DNA of 36,452 nt from a virus (lineage: Duplodnaviria > Heunggongvirae > Uroviricota > Caudoviricetes): IMG/VR virus record IMGVR_UViG_2711768063_000002, one strand, 5' to 3'. Below are positions 35,977-36,134 of this stretch, piece after piece (within the stretch, counting starts at the first letter, position 1; each line of letters begins with the position of its first letter). The notes beneath the pieces are model-generated. The model was given only the letters and a program-made list of their open reading frames with translations. It ran no database searches and was not told the origin of the DNA. A program made the translations under genes and the position numbers.

Positions 35977-36039
35977 ATGCATAAGCCCTATCCCTGGTCA
36001 CCGTCTTCCATTGACCACATCGATAGAATCTCCCTTCAT

Positions 36040-36072
36040 AGCACGATGCCTTTCACGTAACGGCATCGTGCT
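36040..36072. other. Hairpin (11-bp stem AGCACGATGCC / GGCATCGTGCT, 11-nt loop) in the host-side flank
   Basis: Perfect inverted repeat between the att core and the end of the yegR-like gene; no U-tract. Confidence 0.3.
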
Positions 36073-36134
36073 CGCACAGGTTCCGGCTAAGCACAACCAG
36101 AACGCGCATGTTTGACGCTTACCAAAAAATATTC

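Follow-up and report, generated by a model that had tools for sequence, protein, structure and literature searches.

Decayed prophages and the repeated use of sRNA and tRNA 3′ ends as att sites are well known, and so are the P2-type remnants at locI, the preferred site of phage P2, such as PR-X in Escherichia coli K-12. The locI sequence and the K-12 remnant were reportedly described by Barreiro and Haggard-Ljungquist in 1992. Here we analyse a stretch of DNA of 36,452 nt (hereafter the window) in which yegQ (trhP) and the cyaR sRNA gene are followed by a P2-like prophage of ~34.4 kb and then by yegR, at the start codon of which the window ends. The host DNA just outside the int-proximal att core of this prophage resembles a P2-type att arm, and it is probably the decayed P arm of an ancient P2-type element that integrated once and of which an ~800 bp remnant was fixed in E. 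coli.

The P2 reference record (L003, which has the same orientation as the window) is annotated, in this order, with an Int P′-arm site (487-513), Cox (511-584), the att core (600-627), an IHF site (626-659), an Int P-arm site TGGTCACGTCCACACATTGACCACATCG (663-690), the ogr terminator (695-718) and ogr (729-947). The arm-type repeats of P2-like phages have the consensus tgTGGaCa (PMC3448106). In the window the junctions are ordered cyaR, core, P arm and ogr on the left and int, P′ arm, core, host flank and yegR on the right; ogr adjoins the left core, and int, with its end at 35870, lies by the right core. The cyaR gene (1445-1530, plus strand; Rfam RF00112, 100.7 bits) is identical to the annotated K-12 cyaR, and the att core is the 3′ half of its terminator together with the T-run. 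The 27-nt core AATCTCCCTTACACGGGCTTATTTTTT agrees at every base with the annotated attP core of P2 (NC_001895) and forms a direct repeat on the plus strand, with a cyaR-proximal copy at 1507-1533 and an int-proximal copy at 35950-35976; when the two copies were lengthened in a repeat search, 33/35 bases were identical. The P arm of the resident prophage (1534-1596, plus strand) consists of an IHF-site region followed by an Int arm-type site and is colinear with the P2 features. Its Int P-arm site (1568-1595, plus strand) corresponds to L003 663-690 and bears on the minus strand the repeats TGTGGTCA and TGTGGACG, both of which fit the consensus, and the Int P′-arm site (35836-35862, plus strand), which equals L003 487-513, has two GTGTCCACA repeats within the 3′ end of int. 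The late-gene region of the prophage (11940-12428) shows a period of 132 nt, with three tandem copies that are 82-88% identical. The 3′ half of the cyaR terminator in E. coli (ACACGGG; window 1520-1526 and 35963-35969) equals the P2 core, the corresponding sequence in Escherichia sp. E1V33 and E. albertii (L004 and L005, near 3910) is ACGCAGG, two positions off, and in Kluyvera georgiana (L024, near 3905) the sequence is ACACGGG and the 5′ half complements it at every base; the 3′ end of E. coli cyaR may itself have been supplied by a phage.

The 15-mer CATTGACCACATCGA is found exactly twice in the window, at 1582-1596 and 36009-36023, even when two mismatches are allowed, against a chance expectation of 0.07 copies, and two or more copies were obtained in 0/100 shuffles. 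The earlier note had drawn attention to these two copies and placed the one in the flank correctly; the one in the prophage, which it gave as 1580-1594, lies 2 nt further on. The 15-mer is the latter half of the annotated P2 Int P-arm footprint, and its side and orientation to the core match those of the phage. Moreover, the similarity extends beyond it, with a 71% match between 1562-1610 and 35989-36037 in a repeat search. This pair is shifted by 16 nt relative to the core pair; with the IHF region gone, the arm-like block is 16 nt nearer to the core than its phage counterpart. In a pairwise alignment of the kind for which the earlier note had asked, 1534-1640 against 35977-36134 reached a local score of 22, above all of 5000 shuffles (8.4 ± 1.35, maximum 17.5), and the 15-mer is thus not the sole similarity. 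With the P2 P arm the score was likewise 22 for the flank, a value that was reached by 0/9866 windows of real sequence.

The segment 35977-36026 (plus strand) lies directly after the core, in the same orientation and on the ogr-proximal side, and is colinear with L003 627-692; the part at 35977-36023 is colinear with the P arm, on the ogr side, of P2 attP. In multiple alignments with the P arms of six genera, taken from P2-like prophages at cyaR in Citrobacter, Scandinavium, Enterobacter, Buttiauxella and others, the flank is colinear from the core outward. Its ATGCATAA matches the first bases of the phage arms, CTGGTCAC is kept, and the arm repeat TGTGGTCA is intact on the minus strand of 36013-36020 (15/15 with its surroundings against P2). 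The other arm repeat (CGTCTTCC) has decayed and reads GGAAGACG, which agrees with TGTGGACG at 5/8 positions. The alignment gap falls exactly over the IHF region TGAAATAAAAGG, with 12-17 nt missing from the flank and a gap of 16-17 nt in the common allele. A functional P arm has two arm-type Int repeats ~11 nt apart, of which only one is intact in the flank; the IHF site between core and arm repeats is missing from the common allele, and part of it is kept in strain PCN033 and in contig L101. Further out, at 36040-36072 in the yegR 3′ region, an 11-bp perfect hairpin (AGCACGATGCC/GGCATCGTGCT; RNA fold z = −3.2) occupies the position of the ogr terminator hairpin in the phage arm and is an inverted repeat in ATCC 8739 as well. 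It is not homologous to the ogr hairpin, and no T-run follows; a terminator-like site was called here on neither strand.

To place the flank within the surrounding locus, the yegQ-cyaR region was compared among 80 listed species representatives, E. fergusonii, E. marmotae, E. ruysiae and Salmonella not being among them. Among the 76 listed loci with a recognisable cyaR terminator, yegS starts 62-145 nt past the terminator in 50, which are those of Escherichia sp. E1V33 and of 49 other Enterobacteriaceae species; 8 have a P2-type P arm directly past cyaR and 18 carry other inserts. The cyaR terminator is, as judged from these loci, a family-wide hot spot of P2-type integration. In three of the loci with a P arm at cyaR (L051, L064 and L070) yegS is less than 3 kb away, so that these are short remnants. 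One of the 18 loci with other inserts (L053, 3922-4200) bears an independent scar of 284 nt from cyaR to yegS, in which a decayed arm also shows a gap over the IHF region. In E. albertii NBRC 107761 (L005, 3895-6479) a P2-type P arm truncated past the first arm repeat comes after cyaR and the core, and then come IS-like fragments, cdtA (4897-5673) and cdtB (5670-6479); the cytolethal distending toxin genes thus belong to the remains of a P2-type element at this att site.

In a global alignment of ATCC 8739 with E1V33, E. coli has an insert of ~800 bp that begins precisely where the core ends, and homology resumes at CCTC(C/A)CGACTTTCATCC, ~85 nt before the yegS start. Compared with its relatives, E. 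coli thus has extra DNA at the orthologous locus, inserted exactly at the att core, as in a prophage remnant. The insert has 38.9% G+C, compared with 54% in yegQ and 50.6% in the prophage. Its last 58 nt (CCATTGCAAGCTCCTGGTGGTAACCACTGAATCCTCCATACTTGAACTGACTTTTTA), which lie beyond the window, align almost without gaps with the P′-proximal arm and core of P2 (CCGTTGAAAGCCCCTACTGGTGACACCCTAAATCTCCCTTACACGGGCTTATTTTTTA), with 40/58 positions identical (69%), and the alignment stops exactly at the insert boundary. The score of 20 was reached by 0/10000 shuffles and by 1/9866 real windows. The far end can therefore be read, on statistical grounds, as a second, degenerate junction of arm and core. 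The sequence to the left of the degenerate core scores 10-12 against the P′ arm and 6.5 against the body of cyaR, and this counts against a far end made simply by duplication of cyaR in place. E1V33 is the sole close outgroup with a virgin site among the loci compared, and the insert might instead have been lost from that strain by precise excision.

The only gene in the insert is yegR (36135-36452, minus strand), identified from its translation and from the annotation of other genomes; it encodes a lipoprotein-like orphan of 105 aa from a small family (PF27694), and the far end of the insert in which it lies falls outside the window. Neither ogr nor D nor any other phage gene or pseudogene was found in the insert by tblastx and blastn-short against the prophage, the 15-mer being the only match. 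No yegR was seen in the 80 listed outgroup loci, and none of the records in the phage collection has a homologue save those that include the host flank. YegR homologues with 47-83% identity in other bacteria (L084, L087, L091 and L093) lie at unrelated chromosomal loci and not by att sites: in an IS-rich island adjoining an MFS transporter, together with a 110-aa partner ORF between glsA and a nitroreductase gene (glsA-nfsA-ivy-acs), and between bestrophin-like and merR-like genes. Some divergent YegR matches proved to be error-ridden E. coli assemblies. The gene is apparently mobile and patchily distributed.

With distant homologues at non-att loci, a separate arrival of yegR is possible, and a history of two events can be drawn up in which the AT-rich segment with yegR came by another route and a separate P2-like prophage was deleted down to its P arm. 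The absence of phage genes from the insert, the non-phage surroundings of yegR elsewhere and the 69% identity of the far-end junction all fit such a history. It does not account for an insert that begins exactly at the core end, nor for a far end that is more like P′ arm plus core than all but one of the 9866 control windows and has sequence nearer to the P′ arm than to the cyaR body beside its degenerate core. Because a start at the core and a P′-like far end are explained in fewer events by one element with two junctions, we regard two events as rather unlikely and infer that yegR arrived with the whole insert on one P2-type element.

The flank is not uniform within E. coli. A longer allele, TTTTTTGTGCATAAACCATAGAGACGGATTGATCCCAGGTGACCGTCTTCCATTGACCACATCGAT, is found in L101, a Logan contig 96.7% identical to ATCC 8739, and in PCN033 (L102), whose type comprises about 598 complete genomes as counted by matching identity band. 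It has 12 extra bases, A(G/A)AGA(C/A)GGATTG, that are homologous to ATAAAAGGATTT in the IHF region of the arm. The L101 flank scores 26 against the P2 arm over 76 nt, starting from the first base past the core (shuffle maximum 17.5; equalled by 0/1750 real windows), and the PCN033 flank scores 21. Since the long alleles keep more of the arm, the common allele, which is that of the window, is the further-deleted form, and the allele series is the pattern expected of a decaying relic. An 8-bp inverted repeat across the border of core and flank (GGGCTTAT/ATAAGCCC, 35964-35971 and 35981-35988) is present in the E. coli flank with the short allele but missing from the long allele and from phage arms. 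The B2-type alleles (UTI89, L095 approximately 853-1023; also L100 and L092) have ~170 nt of extra AT-rich sequence between the flank and the yegR stop, which may be either more of the old insert retained or a later insertion.

One could also suppose that the match is functional or convergent, the Int repeat being kept because it aids capture or directionality at locI, or that phages copied the flank by imprecise excision. In favour of such readings, the 15-mer is invariant in 11/11 E. coli flanks compared, a 48-mer that spans it and the neighbouring 10-mer at 36027-36036 shows no more than two mismatches in 5195/5287 matching records (exactly in 2580 and with 1-2 mismatches in 2615), and P2 prefers locI. 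Retention for function is poorly compatible with the loss of the IHF site and of one of the two repeats, and the deletions among the alleles fall in the arm region, as decay would have it; at ~9% variable sites in eight sequences, an invariant block of 30 nt would not be unusual. Copying from the host is opposed by the conservation of the arm motif even in those P2-like phages that match the query only from beyond the core. This conservation, together with the match to the P′ arm repeats, indicates a transfer from phage to host. Both versions of this explanation are in our view decidedly unlikely, and the decayed arm remains the probable reading of the flank.

The earlier note had taken the arm-like sequence for a scar of an older P2-family remnant that the present prophage had joined or replaced, and had pointed to the cryptic remnant that K-12 carries at the same locus. 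An older P2-family relic does appear to lie beside the present prophage; a replaced prophage or a feature of the strain is refuted by its distribution. Core, flank and yegR (35950-36452) are contiguous in 5382/5426 complete E. coli genomes (~99%). At the unoccupied sites of ATCC 8739, UTI89, O157:H7 strain 611 and WP4-S18-ESBL-07, yegQ and cyaR lead straight into the flank, which is also found beside other prophages or remnants in NDM6 and MSI001. The cyaR site of ATCC 8739 (Crooks) is listed as free of mobile elements in the E. coli W genome paper (PMC3032704), from which it follows that the flank is normally taken for plain host DNA. In K-12, the cryptic PR-X (P arm, ogrK and yegZ = D′) sits between cyaR and the same flank, ending in a partial core (…gagaactctgc followed by TACACGGGCTTATTTTTTT) and then ATGCATAAGCCCTATCTCTGGTAACCGTCTTCCATTGACCACATCGATAG; ogrK-yegZ thus occupies the position of the present prophage, upstream of the flank, and is not the counterpart of the flank itself. 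Found at empty sites and after the K-12 remnant alike, the flank is neither strain-specific nor the K-12 remnant. The earlier note had also held that its reading would fail if related empty sites lacked the sequence, but empty E. coli sites carry it, and the comparison does not discriminate as intended. The flank is lacking only from truly virgin sites, in Escherichia other than E. coli and in further Enterobacteriaceae, where yegR is missing as well. Despite the arm-like flank and the K-12 remnant at the same locus, a recent scar is thus extremely unlikely, and the sequence beside the right-hand core is silent on the history of the strain and unfit as evidence of prophage replacement.

As for chance, the control with real sequence gave its highest-scoring false hit within the FII tail-tube gene (6516-7034, minus strand), where an arm-like site at 6692-6729 (GATTTCTTTCTG/ACGTCCACGCA/TGACCAC) has a local score of 21; it is probably fortuitous, and it follows that short alignments of such strength can arise by chance. 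A blastn search with the flank in 2.3 Gb of phage DNA returned only records that contain host DNA (Phage TP and vB_EcoM-720R8), the arm similarity being too short for a search at database scale. Position, side and orientation to the core, together with the further evidence, set the flank apart from the site in the FII gene. With all three in agreement with the arm, a score above all shuffles and all 9866 real windows, longer alleles that carry the homology into the IHF region and a second junction at the other end of the insert, a chance resemblance of the flank has a negligible probability in spite of that coding site and that search.

The earlier note had further described a partial second core next to the 15-mer. 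The 10-mer AATCTCCCTT at 36027-36036 (plus strand) does repeat the opening 10 nt of the core without a mismatch and has three copies in the window, the other two being in the att cores at 1507 and 35950; it could not be confirmed as a second att site, and it is exact in only about half of the genomes. Three alleles of it (TC, CT and CC at 36031-36032) are found in E. coli: AATCTCCCTT in the window, O157:H7 and PCN033, AATCCTCCTT in K-12, ATCC 8739, UTI89, NDM6 and MSI001, and AATCCCCCTT in WP4 and L101. No core-like sequence was seen 3′ of 36036, and the 10-mer alone is therefore no evidence of a second att site. Nor could a single deletion leave only that portion of a core. A 9-mer, GAATCCTCC, that the K-12-type allele has in common with the degenerate core at the far end was likewise set aside, with an estimated ~1.2 such matches expected in 800 nt. 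As a second core the 10-mer is unproven, and it is possibly due to chance.

The history that we consider probable for the decayed P arm would begin with a P2-type tyrosine integrase that, in an ancestor of E. coli, inserted an element at the cyaR 3′ end and thereby duplicated the 27-nt core. The cyaR-side copy of the core would have stayed intact because it serves as the cyaR terminator, leaving a usable attB (the P2 locI), and the distal copy would have decayed. Internal deletions would have shrunk the element to ~800 bp. What remained would be a P-arm relic that lacks the IHF site and one Int repeat, followed by the hairpin and by yegR with its AT-rich upstream region, and ending in a degenerate junction of P′ arm and core against the yegS promoter. 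This fossil would then have been fixed in E. coli. Later P2-like phages, such as the prophage in the window, the one that left the K-12 ogrK-yegZ remnant and others, would recombine with the intact core and hence always land between cyaR and the fossil, which explains why the fossil is met just outside the right-hand core. For recombination the relic is presumably functionless now. Against a fossil stand the absence of a detectable phage gene from the insert and of a yegR homologue from phages, the 69% identity of a far-end junction outside the window, and the score of 21 that the site in the FII gene reaches against the arm.

In a search of the searchable literature, the 1992 locI paper being outside its scope, no description of arm homology in locI was found, and the recognition of the "empty" E. 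coli locI as a fossil junction with yegR may be new. These results suggest that a much older P2-type integration has left its last 800 bp here, with both locI and yegR inside, and this would account for a gene and an intergenic region that are specific to E. coli. The serial use of one att site in an sRNA gene would then be layered, with the fossil first and either the K-12 remnant or an intact prophage upon it. A bolder version, in which locI is a surviving ancient junction with yegR as its last cargo and an Int repeat 32-45 nt from the core that is still bound, is quite unlikely on present sequences. If it were true, the retained Int repeat could add to the strong preference for locI, and the int-side junction of every locI lysogen would be a partial attP mimic that could influence excision. 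For annotators, reference genomes with an "empty site" may hold relics of att arms that confuse the calling of prophage boundaries.

Three known systems are close enough for comparison. The P arm of P2 attP, with its IHF site and two Int repeats, is colinear with the fossil from the core outward, and CTGGTCAC and TGTGGTCA are kept; in the fossil, however, unrelated sequence stands in the place of ogr and its terminator, as befits a relic and not a working arm. PR-X of K-12 (attR, ogrK and yegZ = D′ at the P2 site locI) has the locus, the orientation and the type of integrase site in common with the fossil, and both are relics of P2-type prophages left by deletion. PR-X lies between cyaR and the flank, occurs in some strains only and still has its P arm intact along with ogr and part of D, whereas the fossil lacks any phage gene, the IHF site and one arm repeat, is found in ~99% of genomes and is not annotated as prophage-derived. 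Lastly, in grounded prophages and in serial integration at sRNA and tRNA 3′ ends, as here, the core that completes the RNA is kept and targeted again, and older elements are displaced outward and decay. The fossil at locI differs from these in that its decay is nearly complete, with ~800 bp and one orphan gene left, and in that the relic is fixed species-wide, so that the site is normally treated as "empty" (PMC3032704).
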